DNA of 64,000 nucleotides from Thermodesulfobacteriota bacterium (GCA_047519465.1 JAPVTA010000227.1:5687-69686), one strand, 5' to 3'. Shown: positions 7,540-34,472, counted from the stretch's first letter. Made by a program: numbers and translations. Notes: a model not told the origin generated them from the letters alone.

Positions 7540-8241
7540 ATGATCGCCTTTTCTGCGGGACTTCTCTCCTTCGTTTCGCCTTGCGTCCTCCCCCTGGTTC
7601 CCTCTTATATCACCTACATCACGGGGGTTTCCTTCAAGGACCTTACGGATACCGAAGCCCGGTCGAGGCTGAGATGGGCTGCTCTTTTCCATTCCTTCTT
7701 CTTCATCATCGGATTTTCAACGATCTTTATCCTGATGGGCACCTCGGCCTCCTATCTCGGCCAATTATTTGCTCAGTATCAATACTGGATTATGAAAGGA
7801 GGGGGGGTACTGATCATCCTCCTGGGTATCCATTTTACAGGAATCATCAGTATTCCTTTTCTGCAGATTGAGAAAAGATTTGAGGTGAGGAGGAAGCCTT
7901 TGGGCTATGCAGGTTCCTTTCTCGTGGGAGTGGTTTTCGCAGCCGGGTGGACGCCCTGTATCGGACCGATCCTCTCGACGATCCTCATCTATGCGAGCAC
8001 GTCAAAAAGCGTGACGACGGGAGTTCTGCTGCTCACTTACTATTCGATAGGCCTGGGAATTCCATTTCTTCTCTCCTCCCTGGCATTCAATTCATTCCTC
8101 TCTGCCTTCGATAAAATAAAACGATACATGAGAGTCATCAGCGTTGCGAGCGGCCTTTTCCTGGTTGGCATCGGGATTCTCTTCCTGACCGATACGTTTA
8201 AAGAGATCAATTCCTACCTGAATGCGCTCACTAATCCCTAG
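7540..8241 (+). CDS. ccdA: Cytochrome c-type biogenesis / thiol-disulfide transmembrane protein CcdA (DsbD core)
   Basis: 'FSAGLLSFVSPCVLPLVPSYI' and second Cys motif 'AAGWTPCIGPIL'; multi-pass membrane protein. The ORF-track start at 7486 overlaps a TATAAT box (7491-7496), so the downstream Met with GGGA RBS was preferred. Confidence 0.75.
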   Translation: MIAFSAGLLSFVSPCVLPLVPSYITYITGVSFKDLTDTEARSRLRWAALFHSFFFIIGFSTIFILMGTSASYLGQLFAQYQYWIMKGGGVLIILLGIHFTGIISIPFLQIEKRFEVRRKPLGYAGSFLVGVVFAAGWTPCIGPILSTILIYASTSKSVTTGVLLLTYYSIGLGIPFLLSSLAFNSFLSAFDKIKRYMRVISVASGLFLVGIGILFLTDTFKEINSYLNALTNP

Positions 8242-10885: not shown

Positions 10886-10946
<61 letters not shown>

Positions 10947-10962
<16 letters not shown>

Positions 10963-12071
10963 AACACATCAAGGGGTTGCGAACCGGCAGCCCCTTTCTC
11001 ATTTCCGGAACTGTCCAAAAAGTGTCCATCCCAGAAGGAAAGAAAGGCCGAACCGTCGCTTCGCGTCAGATTTGGAATGAATTTCGCGTACCGCTTAAAG
11101 AGCATCTCCGTCGAAGCGTGCCCCATCATCTGAGCCACCCAGTTCGGATTCTCACCCGATGAAAGCATGAGCGTTGCAAAAGTGTGACGGATCTGATACA
11201 TCGTCCGATCTCTCAGGCCGGCTTTCTTCAAGGTAGGGTACCACACCCTGTTTCTCAGGTTGTCGTTGTCCAAAGGTGTGGCGTTCTTTGTCACGAAGAC
11301 ATATTCTCCCAAAAAGAAGGTCTTTGCCTTTTGATCGAGAAGGACTTTTTTGACGGGAGGAAGCATGTCGATCTCCCGGTAGCTCGACTCGGTCTTGGGG
11401 CTTGATTCGATCCCGTGGACACGGCCTTCGCGGACGCTGATCTTTCCTAAGATGAGGTCGACGTTTTTCCACTTAAGGGCGATCAACTCGTTGGGTCTCA
11501 TTCCAGTTAGAAAAGCTGTGACAAAGTAGTTGAAAGAGTCGCGGTCAACCTTCCTGAGGAACCTCTTGACCTCGTCAAAACTGAGCGGGAAGATCTCCGG
11601 CTTGGGCTCCTTGAGCCTCTTGACGAACTGACAGGGGTTCTCCTTGATTTCCTTTCTCCGGTAGGCCGTTTTGAAGAGGGTTTTGAGAGGAACCATGATG
11701 TTGTTGATCCGTTTGGGGCTGAGATGGCCAAGGGTTGAAATAAAGCGCTCGATGTCTGCCTCCATGATCCTTGAGAGAACCATCTCGCCGAAGTAGGGAT
11801 TGAGGTAACTTCTGAAGATAGAGAGATCATCCCGCAGGCTAGAAGATTTCACACGAAGCTTTCTCTGTTTGAGCCACTCCTCGGCGTGATCCTTGAACCG
11901 GATCTTTCTTTCTTCGAAGATTCCGAGAAACTCGCCCTTGGCCTTCTTGACCTCAAGATCTTTCAAGACCAGAAAAGCAAGCTCCTTCGAGGGGCCGACC
12001 TTTTTTCGTCGCCTCTTTCCGTTGATCCGAAGATCGATAAACCAGTGTCTTCCGTGTTTGAAGATTCCCAT
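10947..12071 (-). CDS. int: Tyrosine site-specific integrase (phage integrase family)
   Basis: Catalytic region 'IRHTFATLMLSSGENPNWVAQMMGHASTEMLFKRYAKF' (HxxR ... Y); N-terminal arm-binding/SAM-like domain. The 3' end overlaps the tRNA/att core. Confidence 0.85.
11012..11030 (+). promoter_or_regulatory. 19-bp motif TGTCCAAAAAGTGTCCATC (candidate recombinase/Xis arm-type site), left copy
   Basis: 18 of 19 bases identical to 33547-33565 (TGTCCATAAAGTGTCCATC), in the same orientation, each just inside an island end. Confidence 0.35.
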
Positions 12072-12189
12072 CTTGGGCTCCTTTCAGCCCGGTGGACTGA
12101 AAGGACACCAGATAGATTCCACCCCGTATTCTCTTGTCAAAGAACAATGATTAAGAATACGGGTACCAGGAATCCATCTGAAAGTCAAG

Positions 12190-12414
12190 TTACAAATTGG
12201 CGGACGGCTTTCTACTTGGACGTCCTTCAAAGGAGAATCGCTTTAACCACGCTTCGATTGATGAGGGTCGAAAGCGAATGCAGCGACCCAGCTTTAGAAA
12301 TGGGATGCGCCGCTCGTGGACCCACTTTCTTATGGTCGATTTCTTGACTCCGATAAGATCGCTTAATCCAGGGACGTTGAGAAGTTTTTCTGCTGGTGAT
12401 GGTTCAGTTTTCAT
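12190..12414 (-). CDS. AlpA/excisionase-family HTH DNA-binding protein
   Basis: 74 aa with 'LIGVKKSTIRKWVHERRIPFLKLGRCIRF' (AlpA/Xis-type winged HTH), directly upstream of and co-directional with int. Confidence 0.7.
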   Translation of the reverse strand: MKTEPSPAEKLLNVPGLSDLIGVKKSTIRKWVHERRIPFLKLGRCIRFRPSSIEAWLKRFSFEGRPSRKPSANL

Positions 12415-12494
12415 CTTGACTCCCTCGGTTTCTTTGATTATGTAAGATCATACTCCTGGGGGATAATTTTTGGGAAGGAGAGTAGGAAGCTAGG

Positions 12495-13364
12495 ATGGCA
12501 AAAAACTATGGGGAGAAAATGGCTATTTCCGGTGGGCTTATTGTGACAGAAGAGAGGTCGGTGGAAACACTCTTATCTCTGGGAGAGGAAGCTTTCCTTA
12601 TTAGACTGACCATGTCTCCTTATCTCTTTGAGTTTGAGAAAGTCAAAGAAAGGGTGAAAGAGATCAGCGACGACTGGAAAAGGAGGATTGAATTAAAGAA
12701 ATCGAGGAAAAGTTCCTGGGAAAACGTCTTATACCTTGTTCATTTGTTTCCACGGTCATTGGATCTTCGTGAATTTGGCTGGCTCAAGGAGAAGTATTTC
12801 AACATTCTGATGAGAAGACAATGGGACAGTGAATTGGATAAATCTTACTGGGAGACTCTCGAAAAGGTAAGGAAAGATTTTACCCCTACTAAGCCCAAGA
12901 CTCCAGAGAAGAAACTGTTGATAGCAAGAAAGTTCGAATATTACCATAATGCGTGGGGGAGGGGAGAAATATCCAAGAGATCCAGAGAGCTTTTGGAACT
13001 TTATCATTCCTCTGGTACGGAAGAAGAGATTCTGAAGACTCAGTTTTTAAGGAAAATAAAGATTTCACGGGAAATTATGGAGCGGGAATTGGGGAGACTG
13101 GATAGGATATGTGGTGAAGAGATTAGAGATGAGCAGGATTACCTATTCCTGCCGATAATCATCCAAAATGAACTAAGTCTTATCGAAGATAAGAGTGAGA
13201 GGGAACAAGGCCAAAAATTCTGGATCAAGATATGGAAGCCGATATCCAAGAAAGCAGGCAAGCTTAAGCCAGCCTTCATTATGGAGGTGGTCAAGGAGAC
13301 AGGGCTGAGCGAGGAAACAATAAGAAAACTACTTAGAAAAGCAAAGAAAGAACCGATATACTGA
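12495..13364 (+). CDS. Hypothetical Lys/Glu-rich protein with C-terminal HTH-like segment (possible island regulator/replication initiator)
   Basis: No recognisable catalytic motif. C-terminus 'ETGLSEETIRKLLRKAKK' resembles a DNA-binding helix-turn-helix. Followed by an iteron-like/AT-rich region. Confidence 0.35.
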   Translation: MAKNYGEKMAISGGLIVTEERSVETLLSLGEEAFLIRLTMSPYLFEFEKVKERVKEISDDWKRRIELKKSRKSSWENVLYLVHLFPRSLDLREFGWLKEKYFNILMRRQWDSELDKSYWETLEKVRKDFTPTKPKTPEKKLLIARKFEYYHNAWGRGEISKRSRELLELYHSSGTEEEILKTQFLRKIKISREIMERELGRLDRICGEEIRDEQDYLFLPIIIQNELSLIEDKSEREQGQKFWIKIWKPISKKAGKLKPAFIMEVVKETGLSEETIRKLLRKAKKEPIY

Positions 13365-13962
13365 TCAAAACAATGGATGCGTTTGAGTGTTTCCTGTGAC
13401 TTTTGATCCTCGGATATTAGCCAAAACATGTAAAAGGGTCTTCTCCCGTTTCTTTTTCTCTCGGGTAAGTATGATGTTCATCTAATCATTTAATCAAATG
13501 TATGGAGAGGTGGTTGAAAAGATGGAAAATTGAAGAAAATGCATGGAGAAATGAGAAGATTTCCTTGATTCTTCTTATGGATGTATTCAAGATCATCATT
13601 AGAATCTTCTAAATCCTTTAAACAGAATGTCAAGGGTCCTTCTCTTCATAAAGACAAGGCTTCTTAAGGGCATGGTAAGACCCTTTAAAAGATATGGAAC
13701 CTTCAAAGGCCATTTGACAACCTTTCAAGAAGGGATTGAATGGTTTTCTTGACCCCCAAGACCATGTTTTTTCATCACCTTACTTTAAGAAGGTGAAGGT
13801 TACCTCAATACATGCTCCATATTAAGTCCACATGTGTACATGTAAACATCAATGAGTGGTGGAATAAGCAAAAGATTGTCCTCGGTGTTCTTTAGAGATA
13901 TGCCTAATCCCCCGTAAGCACAGCCTCAGGCAAAGGCTTAAGTAAAAGCAAGAGCTTAAACA

Positions 13963-14033
13963 AGCCCTTGAGAAGTCCTTGAAAAGCTCTTGAGAAATCC
14001 TTGAAAAGTCTTTGAGAAGCCCTTAAGAACCTT
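13963..14033. repeat. About six tandem 11-12-bp repeats (consensus CTTGARAAGYC)
   Basis: 'CCCTTGAGAAGT CCTTGAAAAGCT CTTGAGAAATC CTTGAAAAGTC TTTGAGAAGCC CTTAAGAACC' read directly. Lies inside a ~900-bp AT-rich non-coding region. Confidence 0.5.
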
Positions 14034-14109
14034 TTAAAGAGTATTTGTTATCGATTGAATCAAGAGAACTGATTAATCCTCATGACAATCCAAGCAATCT
14101 CCTCATAAA

Positions 14110-14138
14110 TCCACAATAAAATGTTACTTTATTGTGGA
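14110..14138. promoter_or_regulatory. Perfect 11-bp-stem palindrome TCCACAATAAA-ATGTTAC-TTTATTGTGGA
   Basis: Exact inverted repeat with a 7-nt loop, 160 bp upstream of the helicase gene. No clear T-tract, so it is more operator-like than terminator-like. Confidence 0.45.
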
Positions 14139-14299
14139 TTTGAGCTTGCTTTCTATTGATAGAAGCCTTCTCCACCATTTTGCCTAAGAAATGGGCAGAT
14201 TTAACTTTCTAAAATTAATCGAAAAATACAAAGGTAATTGTAAAAGAAGTGACACCGGTTTAGAATTTTATATCTCCTTTAACAAGAAAAAGGTAAAAA

Positions 14300-16465
14300 A
14301 TGTCCGTCATTCACGGTCTTCTCGAAAAGATTTCTTTCCGTAACGAAGAAAATGACTTTGTGGTGGCAAAACTTCGAGAAAAAGAGAAGAAGGATCTGAC
14401 CACCATTGTCGGTAATCTTTCCGGCATCAACCCCGGTGAATCCCTTAAACTGACAGGTCAATGGATACACAATAAGAGATTCGGTGAGCAATTCCAGGTC
14501 GAGAGCTTCGAAGTCACGGTACCGGCTACCCTCTATGGGATTCAGAAATATCTTGCCTCCGGATTGATTCAAGGCATTGGCCCGATCATGTCAGAGAGGA
14601 TTGTCGAAAAGTTCGGGCTTCATACCTTGCAGGTGATCGAAAAGAAACCTGAAAGGCTATCCGAGGTGGAAGGCATCGGTCCTAAACGGATCTCCATGAT
14701 CAGAAAAGCCTGGGTGGAGCAGAAAGAGATCAAAGAGATCATGATCTTTCTGCAGGGCCATGGAGTAGGCGCTGCCTATTCTGCCAAGATCTACAAACAA
14801 TACGGAGATCAGTCGATTGAAATGGTCAAAGAGAATCCTTATCGTTTAGCCAACGACATATACGGGATTGGTTTCGTCACTGCAGACAAGATCGCTCAGA
14901 ATCTTGGAATCGATCGCAATTCCCTGATCCGGGCCAAGGTAGGTCTCACCTATGTCCTGAATCGGCTGACCGAAGATGGCCATGTTTATTATCCCGAAAC
15001 TCGATTGATTCACAAGGCAAGGGAGATCCTCCATGTGGATGAAGAAATCATCCTCCTGACCGTAAAGGAGCTATGCAAAGAGAAGGAGCTCTTTCTGGAA
15101 GACCTCGATCTTGAGGGTGATCTCAGGGCCGCCTATCTTGCCCCCTTCTATGTGGCAGAGACGGGGGTGGCTCAGAGATTAATCCATCTGAAGGAATCTC
15201 CTTCAAGCATCCGGCCCATCCATCCGGAAAAGGCGATCGAATGGGTGCAGCAGAGGCTGAACATCAAACTTGCCGAAAGACAGGAAGAGGCAATTCTTCT
15301 GGCCGCCACTTCAAAGGTGTTGATTATCACTGGCGGCCCTGGAACCGGAAAGACAACGATCATCACAGCCATATTAAGAATCTTCCAGCAATTAAAGCTG
15401 AAGATCCTTCTCGCCGCTCCAACGGGAAGGGCAGCCAAGAGAATGAATGAGGCCACGGGCTGGGAGGCAAAGACCATTCATCGCCTCCTCGAATACTCTC
15501 CCCATAAGGGTGATTTCAAGAAAGACCAGGAAGATCCTCTTGAGGCGGATGTGGTCATCATCGATGAGGCCTCCATGGTCGACACCCTCTTAATGTACCA
15601 TCTCCTGAAAGCCATTCCTTCCCATGCCCACCTGATCCTGGTAGGAGACGTCGATCAACTCCCATCGGTCGGTCCTGGAAATGTCCTGAAGGATATCATC
15701 CGATCAGAAAAGTTTACCGTAGTGAGGCTCTCCGAGATCTTTCGCCAGGCCCAGGAGAGTATGATCGTAGTCAACGCACACAAAGTCAATAAAGGTGAGA
15801 TCCCCGTTCTAAAGGAGATTGACCAACCCGAAAAAACCGACTTTCAATTCATCCAGGAAGAAGATCCGGAGAAGATCCTTCAAAATATCCTGGACCTCTG
15901 CAGCGAGAAGATACCCAGGCAATTCAAGTTTCATCCATTCAGGGAGATCCAGGTCCTGACACCCATGCACAAGGGAACCATTGGTGTCGCCAATCTCAAC
16001 ATCGAGTTACAGAAGAGACTGAACCCCGGTCAGCCGGGCATCACCCACGGAGCCTGGAATTTCAGATCAGGGGATAAGGTGATGCAGATCGTTAACAATT
16101 ATGATAAGGATGTCTTTAACGGGGATATCGGAAGGATCTCAAAGATCGATCCGGAGGAGAGAGAGGTAGTCATCGAATTCGATGGGAGACTGGTCCCTTA
16201 TGACTATTCTGATCTCGATGAAGTTGTGCTGGCCTATGCCATATCCGTCCATAAATCCCAGGGGAGCGAGTACCCGGTCGTGATTCTTCCGGTGGTCACC
16301 CAGCACTATATGCTTCTCCAGAGAAACCTGATCTACACGGGAATCACCCGAGCAAAGAAACTGGTCGTCCTGATCGGAACGAAGAAGGCCCTGGCCATCG
16401 CCATCGGGAATAACAAACCCCAACGAAGGTACACGCTTCTCTCAGAGAGGCTGGCCGCGTCATGA
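14300..16465 (+). CDS. RecD2-like SF1B ATP-dependent DNA helicase (RecD/TraA family) with N-terminal HhH domain
   Basis: Walker A 'GGPGTGKTT', 'LLAAPTGRAAKRM', Walker B 'VVIIDEASMVD', 'LVGDVDQLPSVGPGNVL', C-terminal 'YAISVHKSQGSEYPVVILP' and HhH 'GIGPKRISMI'; 721 aa. Confidence 0.85.
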   Translation: MSVIHGLLEKISFRNEENDFVVAKLREKEKKDLTTIVGNLSGINPGESLKLTGQWIHNKRFGEQFQVESFEVTVPATLYGIQKYLASGLIQGIGPIMSERIVEKFGLHTLQVIEKKPERLSEVEGIGPKRISMIRKAWVEQKEIKEIMIFLQGHGVGAAYSAKIYKQYGDQSIEMVKENPYRLANDIYGIGFVTADKIAQNLGIDRNSLIRAKVGLTYVLNRLTEDGHVYYPETRLIHKAREILHVDEEIILLTVKELCKEKELFLEDLDLEGDLRAAYLAPFYVAETGVAQRLIHLKESPSSIRPIHPEKAIEWVQQRLNIKLAERQEEAILLAATSKVLIITGGPGTGKTTIITAILRIFQQLKLKILLAAPTGRAAKRMNEATGWEAKTIHRLLEYSPHKGDFKKDQEDPLEADVVIIDEASMVDTLLMYHLLKAIPSHAHLILVGDVDQLPSVGPGNVLKDIIRSEKFTVVRLSEIFRQAQESMIVVNAHKVNKGEIPVLKEIDQPEKTDFQFIQEEDPEKILQNILDLCSEKIPRQFKFHPFREIQVLTPMHKGTIGVANLNIELQKRLNPGQPGITHGAWNFRSGDKVMQIVNNYDKDVFNGDIGRISKIDPEEREVVIEFDGRLVPYDYSDLDEVVLAYAISVHKSQGSEYPVVILPVVTQHYMLLQRNLIYTGITRAKKLVVLIGTKKALAIAIGNNKPQRRYTLLSERLAAS

Positions 16466-17370
16466 CTGAGCTGAAGAACGAATTCTCCTGGTCGAAATCC
16501 AGGGATGAGCTGTTTAAGACCTGCCCCAGGCAGTACTGGTTTGCCTATTATGGCTACTGGAACGGATGGCTTGAGAACGCTCCAGAGAGAAGCCGGCAGA
16601 TCTATGTTCTGAAGAACCTCAAGAACAGGCATATGTGGGTGGGGGAAAGGGTCCATGAATGCATTCAAAGATCCCTTAATAATATCCGAAGAGGGATCAA
16701 GGTCCTTTCAGTAGATGAAATTGTGTCCATTACTCTCGACCAAATGAGAGCGGAGTTTCGTTCTTCAAAGTCGAAGAATTATTGGAAGAATCCCAAATCG
16801 TGTGCCTTGTTTGAGCATGAATATGAGGTGGAAGTGAGTGATGAGGAATGGAAAGAGGCTGTGAGTAATGTGGAGACCTGTCTAAAAAATTTCTACGCCT
16901 CGGATATTTATGATGGTTTAAAGTCCCATCGTAAGGAGGGGTGGCTTGAAGTGGAAGAATTCTCTTCCTTTTATCTGGATCATATAAAAATCAATTTAGT
17001 CATCGACTGCGCCATAAAAGAGGGCGAGGGTGTCTATATCTACGATTGGAAGACAGGAAAAAGCCTCTCAGAAGACCTCTCCATCCAATTAGGCTGTTAT
17101 GCCCTTTACGCTATGGAGAAATGGAATCTTTCTCCTGAATCGCTGAGCATTATTGAATATAACCTCTCCATTGATAAGTCCAACTGGTTTTCAGTGAGCC
17201 AGGAAGAAATGAAAGGCATCAAGGGTTACATCAACGGAAGCATCAAAGACATGCAGTCCCTTCTCATCGATGCCTCGAATAATCTCCCCATGGAAGAAGA
17301 CCGGTTCAGTAAGATAGAAGATGAACACATCATCTCCAGATGTAACTATAAAAAAGTCTGCAGAAAATAA
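16462..17370 (+). CDS. PD-(D/E)XK nuclease, Cas4/RecB-like family
   Basis: 'VIDCAIKEGEGVYIYDWKTGK' (D..E..hhDhK core) and 'QLGCYALY' (RecB-family QxxxY motif). Cysteines near both termini ('TCPRQYW', 'CNYKKVC'). Start overlaps the helicase stop (ATGA). Confidence 0.65.
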   Translation: MTELKNEFSWSKSRDELFKTCPRQYWFAYYGYWNGWLENAPERSRQIYVLKNLKNRHMWVGERVHECIQRSLNNIRRGIKVLSVDEIVSITLDQMRAEFRSSKSKNYWKNPKSCALFEHEYEVEVSDEEWKEAVSNVETCLKNFYASDIYDGLKSHRKEGWLEVEEFSSFYLDHIKINLVIDCAIKEGEGVYIYDWKTGKSLSEDLSIQLGCYALYAMEKWNLSPESLSIIEYNLSIDKSNWFSVSQEEMKGIKGYINGSIKDMQSLLIDASNNLPMEEDRFSKIEDEHIISRCNYKKVCRK

Positions 17371-17549
17371 AACCCAATAGTCCTATCTACGGACGAATTC
17401 TCCGCGAAAGAATCCAATCCGTCATGTTTAGAACATTTTTGGTCAATGCTTGACCAGCCAAATTTCTCTGCCGATAAAAAACCTTTTAAATCAAAAGGTT
17501 ATAAACAGCCCCTTCTGGCACAACAAATGCTTGGTATTGTCAACATGAT

Positions 17550-18329
17550 CTATTTCTGATATAGTGAGGCAAAATCCGGTGGGGGATTCAGATATTGAAA
17601 ACTTGTCGGATGAAACCTCACCCATTGATCCTTGAAGATCTGGGCTGCTTTGAATCCAGCCGAAATCATGGCCTCTAAAGGGAGAAGGGTCTTAAGGAAA
17701 GCCGCAAAGGCTATCTTCCTCAGGGCATGGGAATCCCGTATCCTTTCCCAGACCTGATGCTCCTCTTCGGTATCAGAAAGGAGGTAACCCAGAAGAGCCA
17801 GTTGGCTGGAACCCAGTCCATTCTTGGCGAGCCAGAGTATGACATCTTGATCTTTGATGGCCACTGAGAGGAGGTAGACACATTGCTGGAGAAGAGGGAG
17901 ATCCAGGCTATGGAGACGTCCAACCTCTCGAAGTCTATTTGAGAAACGGAAGGTGTAGAACTCTGGAGCACCGTGATGAAGTGCGTGTCCGGTCTCATGG
18001 TGTATTACGGCTTGGACGATTCTCCCATCGACTCCCATCAATCTTTCTTGACAGATGTGGATCCTTGGATAGCCCATCCATGCATCATGGGTAGCCAAAA
18101 AGTCTGTTTCTTCTCCCGTAACAATGCCGAGATTTTTCTTTTCTCTCTGATAGAAGTCCTGATATTTCTCCATCGTTTTCCAGATCGATACGGACAGATA
18201 AGGAGGAGAAGAAGGTGTTTCCTCTATTTCCAGAACCTCGTTCACCCACGTCCTGACCTGGGTCAAGAAGCCCTCGTCTACCTCCTCGTGGGGTACCATT
18301 TGAATTTGTGTGCCCATTCGACAACTCAT
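17550..18329 (-). CDS. Hypothetical protein with HExxH-type motif ('VIHHETGHALHHG'); putative metal-dependent hydrolase
   Basis: His-rich HExxH-like segment; no other recognisable family signature. Confidence 0.35.
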   Translation of the reverse strand: MSCRMGTQIQMVPHEEVDEGFLTQVRTWVNEVLEIEETPSSPPYLSVSIWKTMEKYQDFYQREKKNLGIVTGEETDFLATHDAWMGYPRIHICQERLMGVDGRIVQAVIHHETGHALHHGAPEFYTFRFSNRLREVGRLHSLDLPLLQQCVYLLSVAIKDQDVILWLAKNGLGSSQLALLGYLLSDTEEEHQVWERIRDSHALRKIAFAAFLKTLLPLEAMISAGFKAAQIFKDQWVRFHPTSFQYLNPPPDFASLYQK

Positions 18330-18400
18330 CTCCTTTTATCCAGTCGGGGCACTTAAAGCTCTAAAAACCCATCAGGAGCCAAGCTGGTTGCCAACATCAC

Positions 18401-19534
18401 TCAATTGATATCATGATGCGCTATCCAGCTGTCGGCTTCCCTGTTTGTCCCCTCAAGCCAGAACCTCTCGATGGTCTCCCTTACCTCTGCAAACCTGCTC
18501 AGGCTCTTAACCACCGAATGAAGCGAATCTTTTTTCCGTAAAGGCGCGGATTTTTGTTCAATCAGCTCCCGTATTTTTTCGACGGCGTGTAATCCAATGG
18601 ACAGTCCCAGCTCTCGGAAGGCGAGACGGTAACCAGCAGGGAGCTTCAAAGAATTTTCTTTCGAAAAGGAATTTAAACCGATCAGGGAAGACTCCGATAA
18701 CGTCTCCAGCAGGCCGGTTTGTTCAAGATTTCCGCTGACAATCAATTGAGCCACCCTGCAGGCATCAAACAAAAGACCGCCGATACCGAGAGGGTCATCT
18801 GTGGCCCAGATGATTCCTTGGCAAATATTGGCCATGTCGAGAATCTCTGCACGGAGATCGTTCCCCATTGATTTTTTCGGGTCTTTTGCTGCAGTCGCCC
18901 GAAGTTCGTTGTAAGTAACAAATCCGTCGATGGGGTCATGTTGCCCCATGGACACCACGAGAGGACGGGAAAGGTCTATACTCATTTTCCAATACATACG
19001 CTTCGGACCACCGTAGGACGAAGCATAGATAAAGCTGGCATGGGCAGTTTTTGCAAGCTCTATCGCCCACGTATTGTACTTTAAATCGCCGGTGACGCCA
19101 CCTACACGGTTAAGAGCATGCATCCACTTTGTCAAATAATGGTAGTACTGCCCATCCCGATCCCACTCCAAACGTTCATCAAAAGGATCGCTGGGTCCAC
19201 GTTCTTGCAATTGCTTGCCTATCCTCAACCCCCCTTTGGTGGGATGTAGCCTGCCGTCCTCCTCATCGAGGCCGCTGATCCAGCCGGTCCGTGAGTCGTC
19301 TTTGCGGTGGTGGCCGAGTGTGTCGTGAACTTGATCAACGAGCTTCAGTGCCAGATCCTTGAATTCTTCGTCCCCGGTCTCCTGATAAAGGCCGAGAAAG
19401 TTGCAGACTGCGAATGCGTCGGTCCATAGGTAGCGCCGGGGTGCAGCGCTTGCTGGTGAGAGTCCGGTTTGTTTGGCAAATCGCTTCATGATTTCCCGGA
19501 CAGTGGGCTGAGATTCATTTTGTTTTACTGGCAT
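18401..19534 (-). CDS. Hypothetical protein (unknown function), probably co-transcribed with the HExxH protein
   Basis: Codon-consistent long ORF; GGAGG RBS precedes Met at 19534. No motif confidently recognised. Confidence 0.35.
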   Translation of the reverse strand: MPVKQNESQPTVREIMKRFAKQTGLSPASAAPRRYLWTDAFAVCNFLGLYQETGDEEFKDLALKLVDQVHDTLGHHRKDDSRTGWISGLDEEDGRLHPTKGGLRIGKQLQERGPSDPFDERLEWDRDGQYYHYLTKWMHALNRVGGVTGDLKYNTWAIELAKTAHASFIYASSYGGPKRMYWKMSIDLSRPLVVSMGQHDPIDGFVTYNELRATAAKDPKKSMGNDLRAEILDMANICQGIIWATDDPLGIGGLLFDACRVAQLIVSGNLEQTGLLETLSESSLIGLNSFSKENSLKLPAGYRLAFRELGLSIGLHAVEKIRELIEQKSAPLRKKDSLHSVVKSLSRFAEVRETIERFWLEGTNREADSWIAHHDIN

Positions 19535-20378
19535 AACGCTGGTGTACCTCCAAGCCTGTTGCCATAACGCAGTGAAGGTTGTAGTGCGGCACTCCGAGCC
19601 CCCGCGCAACCTCCCTAAAGCTTATCCCCAGGCAGGGACCACATCCCCGCTGAGGATTTAGAAGAAGCACCTGTTATTGTTCCGGGTCAAGTCGCCAAGC
19701 ATCATTATTAACCCATAACTACTTCAAAAAAAGGGAAGAATCAAGGAGAGAAATAGGGGATAAGGTGTTTTCTGATTTAAGCAAGCAGCGAAGGAAGCAG
19801 GGTTGATGCTTAGGGACAGTTACATCGTGGTTACACCGCCTCTAAAAGTAAAGGAAGGTCAACCATTTAAAGAGGCGCAGGGGATATCTAGTCCCTTGTA
19901 CTGCGCCAGACGACCCTCCGCTAACCTCTTCCTTCTTATAATCCAGAATCGAACAATTTTGAGAAGCATGCTTGCTAACAATTAACAATGAGCTTAAGAC
20001 TTCTGCTCTTTCGTCCCTTTTGATATGTCCTACATATCGTAACCTTCAAAGAGGTGCGTACAGTGGCAAGATATTGAGCCCTGCCCACTATTTCAGAGGC
20101 GCCCTTCCCAACGATTTACCTCGATGATTCGGAGTCTCAGATTCTATCCCCTGATTCCTTCTATGCTCACCCGGATTACCCGATGGATTCCTATGTGAAC
20201 TGATCTTTGGTGGATAAGGGGTTGGTTTGTCTGCAGGAAGGGGCAAAAAAACCTTTTTATCGACAAGTGAGTATGGATATCCTGTCTTGTGTCATACTAA
20301 TCCCGCTCCGAAATCTCTTTGTCCCGGTCCCCACAGGATGTCCTGAGAAAGCACCTAATATCTTGCGATTTCTTCTTC

Positions 20379-20474
20379 TTGACATACAACTCCCTTGTTT
20401 CTATAGTCGATCCATCCTGAAGCGGCTTCTTATCAGTTTTTTTCCTTGACATACAACGGGGGGGTTCCTATACT
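20379..20474 (+). promoter_or_regulatory. Two tandem near-consensus sigma70 promoters (TTGACA-17 bp-TATAGT and TTGACA-17 bp-TATACT)
   Basis: -35 at 20379-20384 with -10 at 20402-20407; -35 at 20446-20451 with -10 at 20469-20474. The second spacer contains a G7 run. They lie upstream of the lipoprotein gene. Confidence 0.5.
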
Positions 20475-20517
20475 AAAAACGCAATTAGTGACAAATTTTT
20501 TTAAGGAAGGGGATAAT

Positions 20518-21075
20518 ATGAAATTAAGGGTATCCTTTATTGTCGCATTTTTAATCGCCTGCCCCATCCTTCTCACATCTTGCGCGTCGGGGACGGCGTA
20601 TCAAAAGGCCGATGCGCCCGCAACGAAGGCGGTGATATACGTATACCGCCCATCGCGTTTGCTCGGCGCTGCCCTGTCATATTCGCTGTGGGATGTCACG
20701 AATGCGATCGTGACGAAGAAAGTCTCCATCGTACCCAACGATGCCTTCGGCTATAACCCGGCAAAAGATACGCGCATCGACCAATTCAGAGAAGGCATGA
20801 AGTACAGCAAAAAGCTCGCGCGGCTAGTCAACGGGAGTTATTACGCCTATACCGTAGACCCGGGTACCTACTACTTCATTGTGGAGAATACTTCTGGCAT
20901 CGGCAAAGGATGGGGGGTCACCGATGCGGTCACCAAAGTCGAGGCGGAGGCCGGCAAGCGGTATTTTTTCTACTCCTGGGTTGGAGGCGGCGGTCGGGCT
21001 TATATGGAGACCAGGACTGTGGAGAAGGGTGAAAAGGAGATAACCGGGTGCAAACTAGTAGTCGAAGAGAAATAA
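20518..21075 (+). CDS. Lipoprotein of unknown function
   Basis: 'MKLRVSFIVAFLIACPILLTSCASG' is a signal peptide plus lipobox (LLTSC). RBS GGAAGGGGA precedes the start. Confidence 0.55.
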   Translation: MKLRVSFIVAFLIACPILLTSCASGTAYQKADAPATKAVIYVYRPSRLLGAALSYSLWDVTNAIVTKKVSIVPNDAFGYNPAKDTRIDQFREGMKYSKKLARLVNGSYYAYTVDPGTYYFIVENTSGIGKGWGVTDAVTKVEAEAGKRYFFYSWVGGGGRAYMETRTVEKGEKEITGCKLVVEEK

Positions 21076-21764
21076 CCCGGAAACATCAAATAAATTCTTA
21101 TCCCTACGGTAATTGAATTCCTGAGGTCCTGGCGACCTTCGGCCCTGCTTCTTTTGGAACTTAGATTGTTCTTATCTGCTGTATCTCCGTCTGTTTCCCA
21201 ATTACGGAAAAGGTGTTGGTATAGATATCATTTATTGAATTGGGATGCACATTCGCACCAGTAATCGTCGACACCCAGAGTCACTCCAGGCTAACGATTT
21301 GTAGGTAACATTCTTTTCACTCACCGTTTTTTCAGACCCCCGTGTTACTTAACTGGGGGCTTGATTACTTCCTGAAACACTCAAAATCGAAGTTTGCCAT
21401 AGGATTGAAGATTACAATCAGATATCTTCAGTTGGGGTAATGTGCAGATAGTAGCAAGCCATATATGAATTTAAAAATTCGGGGTCCACCCCCAACATAT
21501 TGCGTCTCCTTAAAGCCCTGCGCTGGATTGTTGGCACTTGAGGCTCCCCAAATCCCTACCCAAAATTCCCCTTGACAATCCTCTCATTTTGAACTATTTT
21601 CTAGCCATCGTTTCCCTACAGTTCCTATTTGACCCAACAGCCTAACCTCTAATCTTCTGGAGGGTGTCATGTTAAGGATTCCCAGAAGATGCCAATGCGA
21701 TGATTCCAAGGGAGATTTGTTTTTTCCTGGAGCACTTCTCGTTTTTATGCCTAAGGAGAGGAAG

Positions 21765-33707: not shown

Positions 33708-33752
33708 CTCATAACCCGAAGGTCGCTAGTTCAAATCTAGCCCCCGCTACCA
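33708..33752 (+). repeat. attR: 45-bp direct repeat of the tRNA-fMet 3' half, from the anticodon loop to CCA
   Basis: Identical to 10918-10962. The next ~20 bp (A-CA-TCAAGGGGTTGCG) also resemble the sequence following the genuine tRNA. Confidence 0.8.
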
Positions 33753-33773
33753 AGCATTTCAAGGGGTTGCGCA

Positions 33774-34280
33774 TTATGCGTAACCCTTTTTTTTGGAACT
33801 GCTACTGCTTTTGCTACTGCCATTTTTTGCCACCTCCCTGGTCCGGGCAGGTAACGCCCCAGCAAGGAGGCTCGCCTGCTTCCGCAGAAACTCCTGGTCG
33901 TCCCCGAAAAGGTGACCGTAAACATCCAGAGTAAAAGCCACGGAAGAATGCCCCATTTGAAACTGGCTGCCCCAGACCGTGCGCCGCACAGACAACTGTC
34001 TTGTCGCGGGTTGAAAATCGGGCCACTGCAAGCCCCACAATTCACCGGCCCGTACCCCGGTCATGATCGCCGTCCGAAAAGCCGTCTGATAATGCTTCTC
34101 CGTATTGTCGACCAATTGACTTAATTCGGCCGGCGTTAGAATATCAATCTCATGGTGACGGTTCCTGGGCCGCTGCAATTCCGCAGCCGGATCTGTCTTG
34201 AGATAACCCCATCGCGTTGCCACCCGGAACATCATCTTGAGAAGTGCAATCTGGTTGATAGCCGTCTCGGGCGCGGCCAC
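33774..34280 (-). pseudogene. Integrase remnant (tyrosine recombinase C-terminal fragment with internal deletion)
   Basis: Contains 'AFRTAIMTGVRAGELWGLQWPDF' (start of the catalytic domain) joined almost directly to 'MGHSSVAFTLDVYGHLFG' (the terminal Tyr region). The HxxR-containing middle is missing. It occupies the same position relative to attR as int does to attL. Confidence 0.55.
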
Positions 34281-34472
34281 CTGCCTCGTCCGCTCCGAAG
34301 CGAACTCGACAAGCTCCGGGGTCGTAATATCGCTTAAAGGCTTGTTGCCGAATTTAGTCTCCAGAAAGCACCTGATGATGTTCTTGTAGCGGCTCTTTCA
34401 ACGAAAAACGCGGAGTGCTTTTCACTTGACAAATTTTTTTAAATTTAGTAATAGAAGAATGAGCGTTCATTC

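Follow-up and report, generated by a model that had tools for sequence, protein, structure and literature searches.

Do two adjacent genes that run head-on into a helicase-nuclease pair form a further defence, anti-defence or toxin/immunity module, or are they simply neighbours? The question is raised by a 64,000-nucleotide stretch of DNA from a Thermodesulfobacteriota bacterium (GCA_047519465.1, JAPVTA010000227.1:5687-69686; hereafter the window), taken from a metagenome-assembled genome (MAG), in which an earlier note made from the sequence alone had singled out, between positions 17550 and 19534, a gene for a 402-aa protein and a gene for a protein with a HExxH motif. Open reading frame (ORF) calls bear out the arrangement it described: both genes lie on the minus strand in the same direction and are convergent with a Cas4-like nuclease gene, the end of which (17370) is 179 nt from the stop of the 259-aa ORF. 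It is probable, in our judgement, that the two are unrelated enzyme genes with separate distributions, brought together by chance in one shallow clade, which would be that of Thermodesulfobacteriota-like ("Deltaproteobacteria") anaerobes, and that both are damaged at their 3' ends in this copy. Under this explanation a TGG-to-TGA transition would have deleted the last helix of the larger protein, and turnover in the variable slot that parts the HExxH gene from the nuclease and RecD2 helicase genes would have removed the last 47 codons of the smaller one.

The larger protein, in which the earlier note could place no motif, is a cytoplasmic (alpha/alpha)6-barrel of the six-hairpin glycosidase-like superfamily. 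It possesses the twelve-helix barrel by which this superfamily is recognised, and its fold matches GH76, AGE / cellobiose 2-epimerase, GH15 glucoamylase, GH88, GH105 and GH8 enzymes at 8-13% identity; since the scores obtained for GH76 and AGE are almost equal, neither is preferable. No signal peptide or hydrophobic N-terminus is visible on direct reading of the sequence. Neither this protein nor the HExxH protein matches a Pfam or NCBIfam model above threshold, and their homologues carry, in both families, the database name 'hypothetical protein' without exception. When 65 members of the barrel family were also scanned with Pfam none reached the threshold; matches below it were to GlcNAc_2-epim (PF07221; 12 members, best E 4e-4), GH127 (12), GH76 (PF03663; two, best E 0.002) and GH88 (two), and those recurring in more than one member belong nearly all to the same clan. 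The window protein itself has no match to PF03663 and was not placed in GH76, and a PDB profile match to the AGE family is weak (E 0.2), the hairpin aligned being a different one (query 26-69 with chain 295-338).

Invariant residues of the barrel family cluster at the N-terminal ends of alternate helices, in the motifs RYLWTD, EWDRDGQYxHY, HDPLDG, DPLGIGG, RLAFRELG and HxDIN, and H70, H132 and H373 are invariant at the level of sequence. The catalytic funnel of six-hairpin enzymes sits at the N-termini of the inner helices, and the helices that bear these motifs are therefore presumed to be the inner ones. Fold and motifs together suggest a protein that binds and transforms a sugar or glycoside, either by hydrolysis or by epimerisation/isomerisation.

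The family is large: more than 8000 homologues were found in the 90%-clustered version of a database of 5.8 billion proteins, an exhaustive HMMER search returned 1855 clusters at 50% identity with E<=1e-3 (498 with E<=1e-30), and in a pattern scan of one genome per species at least 589 confirmed stretches encode a barrel relative. Among the matches listed are Desulfobacterales, Syntrophales, Nitrospirota/Thermodesulfovibrionia, Spirochaetota, Methanotrichaceae, Methanosarcinales and Bathyarchaeota, with identities across phyla and domains of 58-67%. Distant relatives of 300 aa (hhalign probability 99.9) are also encoded on three Rhizobium megaplasmids (L169-L171; e.g., L170 1928-4840), 3-16 nt downstream of a 664-aa fusion of a protein-L-isoaspartate O-methyltransferase (PCMT) with an erythromycin-esterase-like domain; PGAP labels one of these Rhizobium fragments a 'glycoside hydrolase family 76 protein'. 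Homologues of the HExxH protein number 487 in the same 5.8-billion-protein database. The ratio of nonsynonymous to synonymous substitution rates (dN/dS, omega) in pairwise comparisons is 0.14-0.32 for both genes, indicating purifying selection in all pairs. With homologues in the thousands and hundreds and with such ratios, both ORFs can be regarded as real genes.

A typical homologue of the barrel protein has 393 aa, starts at an ATG equivalent to 19534 and ends in xVMLATSLAPDGFLEL. The length of 402 aa given in the earlier note holds for an ORF opened at an upstream TTG, and the limit of 19534 given with it is the homologues' ATG, from which the uninterrupted frame is shorter. That frame ends at a TGA within the sequence GATATCAAT TGA GTGATG; the next 15 codons in frame encode VMLATSLAPDGFLEL, matching the conserved C-terminus of the family exactly, and are followed by a TAA. 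Codon 378 is TGG in seven close relatives and AGG (Arg) in an eighth (L005), and by comparison with these sequences the lesion appears to be a single G-to-A nonsense change, i.e., a transition. The stop falls directly after HHDIN, and the 15 codons lost make up the final barrel helix (374-391), in which V379, M380, L381, A382 and L385 are at least 90% conserved among the 65 family members. The gap between the two ORFs, previously put at 72 bp, is in fact 71 nt and is an artefact, because the in-frame TGA cuts the barrel ORF short of its ancestral TAA: most of it is coding, which leaves a true spacer of 23 nt with an AAGGAG in it. Selenocysteine, readthrough and an alternative genetic code were each considered as explanations of the TGA and rejected, the codon position being variable in the family (W/K/G/E/R and others). 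Of 44 long ORFs in the window, 18 end in TGA, more than in any other stop, and a search for a hairpin downstream of this one showed nothing unusual (fold z -0.49).

The smaller protein is predicted to be soluble. In its structural model an N-terminal alpha/beta domain similar to the zincin fold precedes a helical bundle, and the HExxH motif lies in helix 102-119. The HExxH-like site already noted (VIHHETGHALHHG) is indeed encoded and is conserved across 120 homologues, with E112, H115 and H119 present in all of them and H111 and G120 in 119; upstream of the motif, C93 (120/120), H81 (119/120) and H91 (116/120) are conserved as well. As in zincins, HExxH is placed on a candidate active-site helix and conserved throughout the family. 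The spacing H-E-x-x-H-x3-H and the additional Cys and His residues appear to match no canonical zincin subclass. The suggestion of a metallohydrolase is plausible on these grounds, and we infer from fold and motif that the protein may be a metal-dependent hydrolase, with Glu112 serving to activate water bound to the metal.

Homologues of this protein are 277-284 aa long, and the window copy matches them over residues 1-236 alone (88% identity in tblastn with P0122); 23 unrelated residues then stand in for 47 conserved C-terminal residues, which form two helices. W242, F266, Q267 and E271 are lost, among the 120 homologues, in the window copy only. Nucleotide similarity to the related loci L003, L004, L093, L097, L105 and L115 ends in blastn at 17621/17622, and tblastn found the missing 47-residue segment nowhere in the 64-kb window. 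The 236-nt filler beyond the breakpoint has no similarity to L105, L097 or L121, where 1.8-3.7 kb of other genes take up the corresponding slot: in L105 these are Usp, a GmrSD_N protein, two further ORFs and the Cas4-like nuclease, together with a displaced duplicate of the HExxH 3' end (7752-8010), and in L097 a REase-ARP nuclease and an HTH protein, with no Cas4-like nuclease. The truncation is best explained, we infer, as collateral damage of turnover in this slot. Being variable, and carrying restriction-like cargo in relatives, the slot that separates the HExxH gene from RecD2 can account both for the truncation and for the impression of a defence neighbourhood.

Other origins of the breakpoint were examined and rejected. 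A displaced HExxH 3' end beside the integrase of the window was discarded, the 147-nt gap there being the tRNA-fMet gene itself, and so was the possibility that the tRNA integrase has an att site at 17621 (17380-17700 gives a local alignment score of 16, against a shuffle mean of 16.5); the region 13365-14320 aligned with the tRNA/att region no better than shuffled sequences and was rejected likewise. Within the filler, a weak minus-strand hairpin is followed by a T-run (17476-17500). A 34-nt motif, CCCCCACCGGATTTTGCCTCACTATATCAGAAA, at 17553-17585 (minus strand), 35 nt from the breakpoint, recurs at 4443-4476 of L101, 3.4 kb downstream of the HExxH gene there, and nowhere else among 171 loci.

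Most likely, then, both window copies have recently been inactivated or crippled. Long-term decay as pseudogenes was rejected: the dN/dS of the window copies is not raised, which implies that the lesions are recent (or artefactual). Several points weigh against this explanation as a whole. The proposed chemistry is drawn from fold and motif, and neither family has a characterised member. The source being a MAG, the TGA and the junction at 17621 could be errors of sequencing or assembly; one other assembly was found, a contig (L088; JAPVSZ010000124.1, GCA_047519545.1) that is 100% identical to positions 10916-21327 of the window (10.4 kb) and carries the same lesions, and it may not be independent of the window assembly. 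The truncated proteins might still be active. Finally, the 23-nt spacing with a ribosome-binding site, and the pairing of the two genes in 13 of 24 loci described below, allow co-transcription and some functional link within the clade.

How far the two genes belong together was judged from their occurrence elsewhere. The HExxH gene lies downstream of the barrel gene in two of 83 barrel loci, those of the closest relatives L003 and L004 only, and the pairing is missing in the other 81. Counted over HExxH loci with room upstream, the barrel gene adjoins in 13 of the 24 at >=80% identity and in none of the 28 at 55-70%. The gaps between paired genes in relatives are 26, 66 or 335 nt. No cluster of neighbouring genes is conserved in more than six of 82 barrel loci, and the neighbours of the HExxH gene differ likewise (radical SAM in 11 loci, a methyltransferase with a 491-aa protein in eight, TadA-like in eight, and also cupin). 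A conserved gene neighbourhood was consequently rejected as a clue to function, the neighbours of both genes varying between loci. In L093 a tRNA-Met lies near the pair; it is a different, elongator tRNA with no link to the tRNA-fMet of the window.

The observations that could be read as marks of an intact, working two-enzyme operon, e.g., a glycosidase or epimerase and a metallohydrolase acting on one glycoconjugate, with lesions that are MAG errors or are tolerated, are the true spacing of 23 nt, the AAGGAG before the second gene, the same gene order with gaps of 26-66 nt in L003, L004, L093-095, L105 and L115, the unraised dN/dS of the window copies and the MAG source itself. We nevertheless regard such an operon as rather unlikely, for besides the pairing counts among barrel loci and the more distant HExxH loci, 11 of the 24 close relatives lack the pairing and some gaps extend to 335 nt, the segments lost are highly conserved in both families, and the 236 nt beyond 17621 have no counterpart in relatives, the missing 3' end being absent from the window. 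Somewhat less doubtful, though still unlikely, is a broader view in which two families never before characterised and without a Pfam or NCBIfam model, a widespread barrel with a novel pocket and a small HExxHxxxH+Cys metallohydrolase with an atypical site, act on one substrate in the clade that they share and anchor a slot that collects restriction-like genes; the barrel family would then have moved between anaerobic bacteria and archaea, methanogens among them, and possibly represents new carbohydrate or non-carbohydrate chemistry.

Least probable of all is the module proposed in the earlier note, in which the HExxH protein would be an effector for defence, anti-defence or toxicity and the larger protein its partner; we give it hardly any credence. 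The two genes do adjoin a Cas4-like nuclease and a RecD-type helicase that both match PADLOC models, and relatives have the restriction-like GmrSD_N and REase-ARP between the HExxH gene and RecD2. However, the barrel protein has no match in PADLOC-DB 2.0, where the HExxH protein matches only MTase_III at chance level (E 0.0043, 13.9 bits over 55 residues), neither protein matches PHROGs, and neither family has a member among IMG/VR contigs or GenBank phages, so that the phage homologues expected of anti-defence genes are lacking, as is the conserved adjacency expected of a toxin/antitoxin or toxin/immunity pair. Both families are stand-alone in varied metabolic contexts, and the supposed partner folds like an enzyme and has a pocket that is conserved. 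As to the neighbouring pair, the helicase is an equivalog-level RecD2, of which L097, L105 and L121 have copies, 85-89% identical, that likewise converge on the HExxH gene, and the nuclease is not fixed beside it, since a copy 88% identical is found in L105 but is absent from L097. The earlier note had named beforehand what would speak against its proposal, namely clear housekeeping homologues in conserved non-mobile synteny, or a HExxH motif not conserved among homologues; the outcome was divided, the motif being conserved and neither gene having conserved synteny beyond close relatives. An island setting, which that note had also assumed, is somewhat easier to credit: here both genes would be accessory cargo of a tRNA-fMet-integrated island, moved horizontally with it and adaptive rather than housekeeping. 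An integrase does abut tRNA-fMet, a degenerate second integrase adjoins a 46-bp repeat 22.8 kb away, barrel identities of 58-67% across bacterial phyla and archaea imply that this family has been transferred horizontally, and the genomic context varies among close relatives. Against this, relatives keep RecD2 and the pair in synteny at 85-93% identity; similarity to L097, a relative whose locus runs past the RecD2 start, stops 25 nt upstream of RecD2, meaning that L097 does not share the integrase module; the G+C content of the two genes (0.45-0.50) fits the window average, 12-15 kb being AT-rich; the remaining island genes are mostly of ordinary metabolism (a Liv-type ABC transporter, HMG-CoA reductase and lyase); neither family was found on phages or mobilisable plasmids, and the HExxH family is absent from the PLSDB plasmids. 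We therefore consider cargo status improbable, and return to two separately distributed enzyme genes with 3' damage as the explanation that best fits the locus, the features of which are collected below.

Table 1. Features of the barrel-HExxH locus and its surroundings; positions are those of the window unless a related locus is named.
Feature	Position	Strand	Evidence or remark
Smaller ORF, 259 aa	17550-18329	minus	ORF call
Larger ORF, 402 aa from TTG start at 19609; 377 aa from ATG at 19534	18401-19609	minus	ORF call
Full reading frame of (alpha/alpha)6-barrel gene, homologue ATG to ancestral C-terminus, one in-frame TGA inside	18356..19534	minus	
Premature TGA, Trp378 codon TGG -> TGA	18401..18403	minus	relatives' alignment
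Ancestral TAA stop of barrel gene	18353..18355	minus	in-frame reading past TGA
HExxH gene part homologous to family, residues 1-236 of ~283	17622..18329	minus	tblastn, blastn
Candidate metal-binding HExxHxxxH helix, VIHHETGHALHHG	17970..18008	minus	translation and family conservation
Non-homologous 23-codon tail and stop	17550..17621	minus	homologue alignment
236-nt filler in variable slot between HExxH and nuclease genes, overlapping 23-codon tail	17385..17620	.	
Variable-slot spans	window 17385-17620; L105 6850-10400; L097 2630-5330; L121 646-2434		
Upstream leader/promoter region of barrel gene, 231 nt	19535..19765	minus	similarity to related loci
PD-(D/E)XK (Cas4-like) nuclease gene	16462-17370	plus	PF12705 E 1e-11; PADLOC Aga_Cas4-like_Nuc E 2e-23
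RecD2 helicase gene	14300-16465	plus	TIGR01448 948 bits, cutoff 500
tRNA-fMet	10886-10962	plus	left junction of formal island
Tyrosine integrase abutting tRNA-fMet	10947-12071	minus	left junction of formal island
46-bp exact direct repeat of tRNA-fMet 3' half	33708..33753	plus	formal right junction
Degenerate integrase remnant beside right repeat	33984-34382	minus	29% identical to residues 84-214 of intact integrase

The non-coding region of about 900 bp reported upstream of the barrel gene (19535-20445) was confirmed: it is 911 nt long and holds two short ORFs only (60 and 80 aa), with no Rfam match and no similarity to the neighbouring genes of related loci. Its first 231 nt are 85-88% identical in about 17 related loci, end sharply and contain a TTGACC -35-like hexamer. 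A riboswitch or structured leader, in this part or in the whole gap, was rejected, no Rfam match being obtained even at E<=1; compensatory change was seen in 0 of 55 predicted pairs of the 231-nt region, where the sequences are too alike to be informative.

On the other side of the pair, the end of the RecD2 gene overlaps the downstream nuclease gene by 4 nt (ATGA). An AT-rich non-coding gap of 935 nt (13365-14299) separates RecD2 from an unknown ORF of 289 aa that belongs to the integrase module; in this gap, six to seven head-to-tail units of 11 nt (AAGCCCTTGAG / AAGTCCTTGAA; 13962-14038) resemble iterons or protein-binding repeats. A 93-nt non-coding element with the palindrome TCCACAATAAAATGTTACTTTATTGTGGA (14106-14198) is 80% identical to positions 19570-19662 of L001, an unrelated contig of another metagenome, and may be a small mobile or regulatory element.

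The left copy of the 46-bp repeat lies at 10918-10963, with the barrel and HExxH genes between the two copies; an integrase adjoining a tRNA gene and a far repeat of the tRNA 3' end, by which tRNA-integrated islands are recognised, are accordingly both present. The tRNA-fMet 3' fragment and the degenerate integrase point to tandem accretion of islands at tRNA-fMet. The ends of L088 correspond to 10916 and 21327 of the window, the break falling 2 nt ahead of the 46-bp tRNA repeat, and the way in which the 64-kb window is joined across the repeat copies (10.9 and 33.7 kb) hinges on the resolution of this repeat by the assembly.

In conclusion, the pair should not go forward as a defence or toxin candidate, and a false lead is thereby removed. 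The two genes should be re-annotated, one as interrupted by a nonsense codon and the other as truncated at its 3' end. The barrel family, which has 1855 clusters, a confident enzyme-like fold and no curated model, and which at about 60% identity is common to sulfate reducers, syntrophs, Nitrospirota and Methanothrix-type archaea, is a reasonable target for curation and biochemical screening. Both families are uncurated members of known fold superfamilies, and the locus is chiefly a pointer to the unannotated barrel family.

Compared with known systems, the surroundings of the pair are like those of tRNA-integrated islands in their intact tRNA-fMet, abutting tyrosine integrase, 46-bp repeat and degenerate second integrase, but unlike a typical island in that the genes of interest are syntenic in relatives without the integrase module. 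The HExxH protein shares with zincin-like metallohydrolases an alpha/beta sheet followed by a helix with His-Glu-x-x-His; the relatives compared were YbeY (UPF0054; PDB 1xm5, 1oz9, 7y7o), the unassigned hydrolase 3cmn, on which a literature search returned nothing relevant, and the catalytic domains of gluzincins (M1, M9, M48, thermolysin). YbeY has the motif H-x3-H-x5-H, in contrast with H-E-x-x-H-x3-H here, and the protein was not assigned to that family. The metal site of the peptide deformylase type, formed by a Cys together with HExxH, may serve as no more than a lead, the HExxH protein having an invariant Cys on a strand upstream of its invariant HExxH helix. For the barrel protein the closest systems are the GH76 alpha-1,6-mannanases (PDB 4mu9, 4v1r, 4d4a) and the AGE / cellobiose 2-epimerase family (PDB 5zig, 4z4j, 3vw5), both with a like barrel fold at the low identities given above; whereas many GH76 enzymes are secreted, the barrel protein is cytoplasmic and without a signal peptide, and unlike both GH76 and AGE enzymes it carries a long conserved insertion between helices 2 and 3 (GWISGL...HPTxGGLRIGK).

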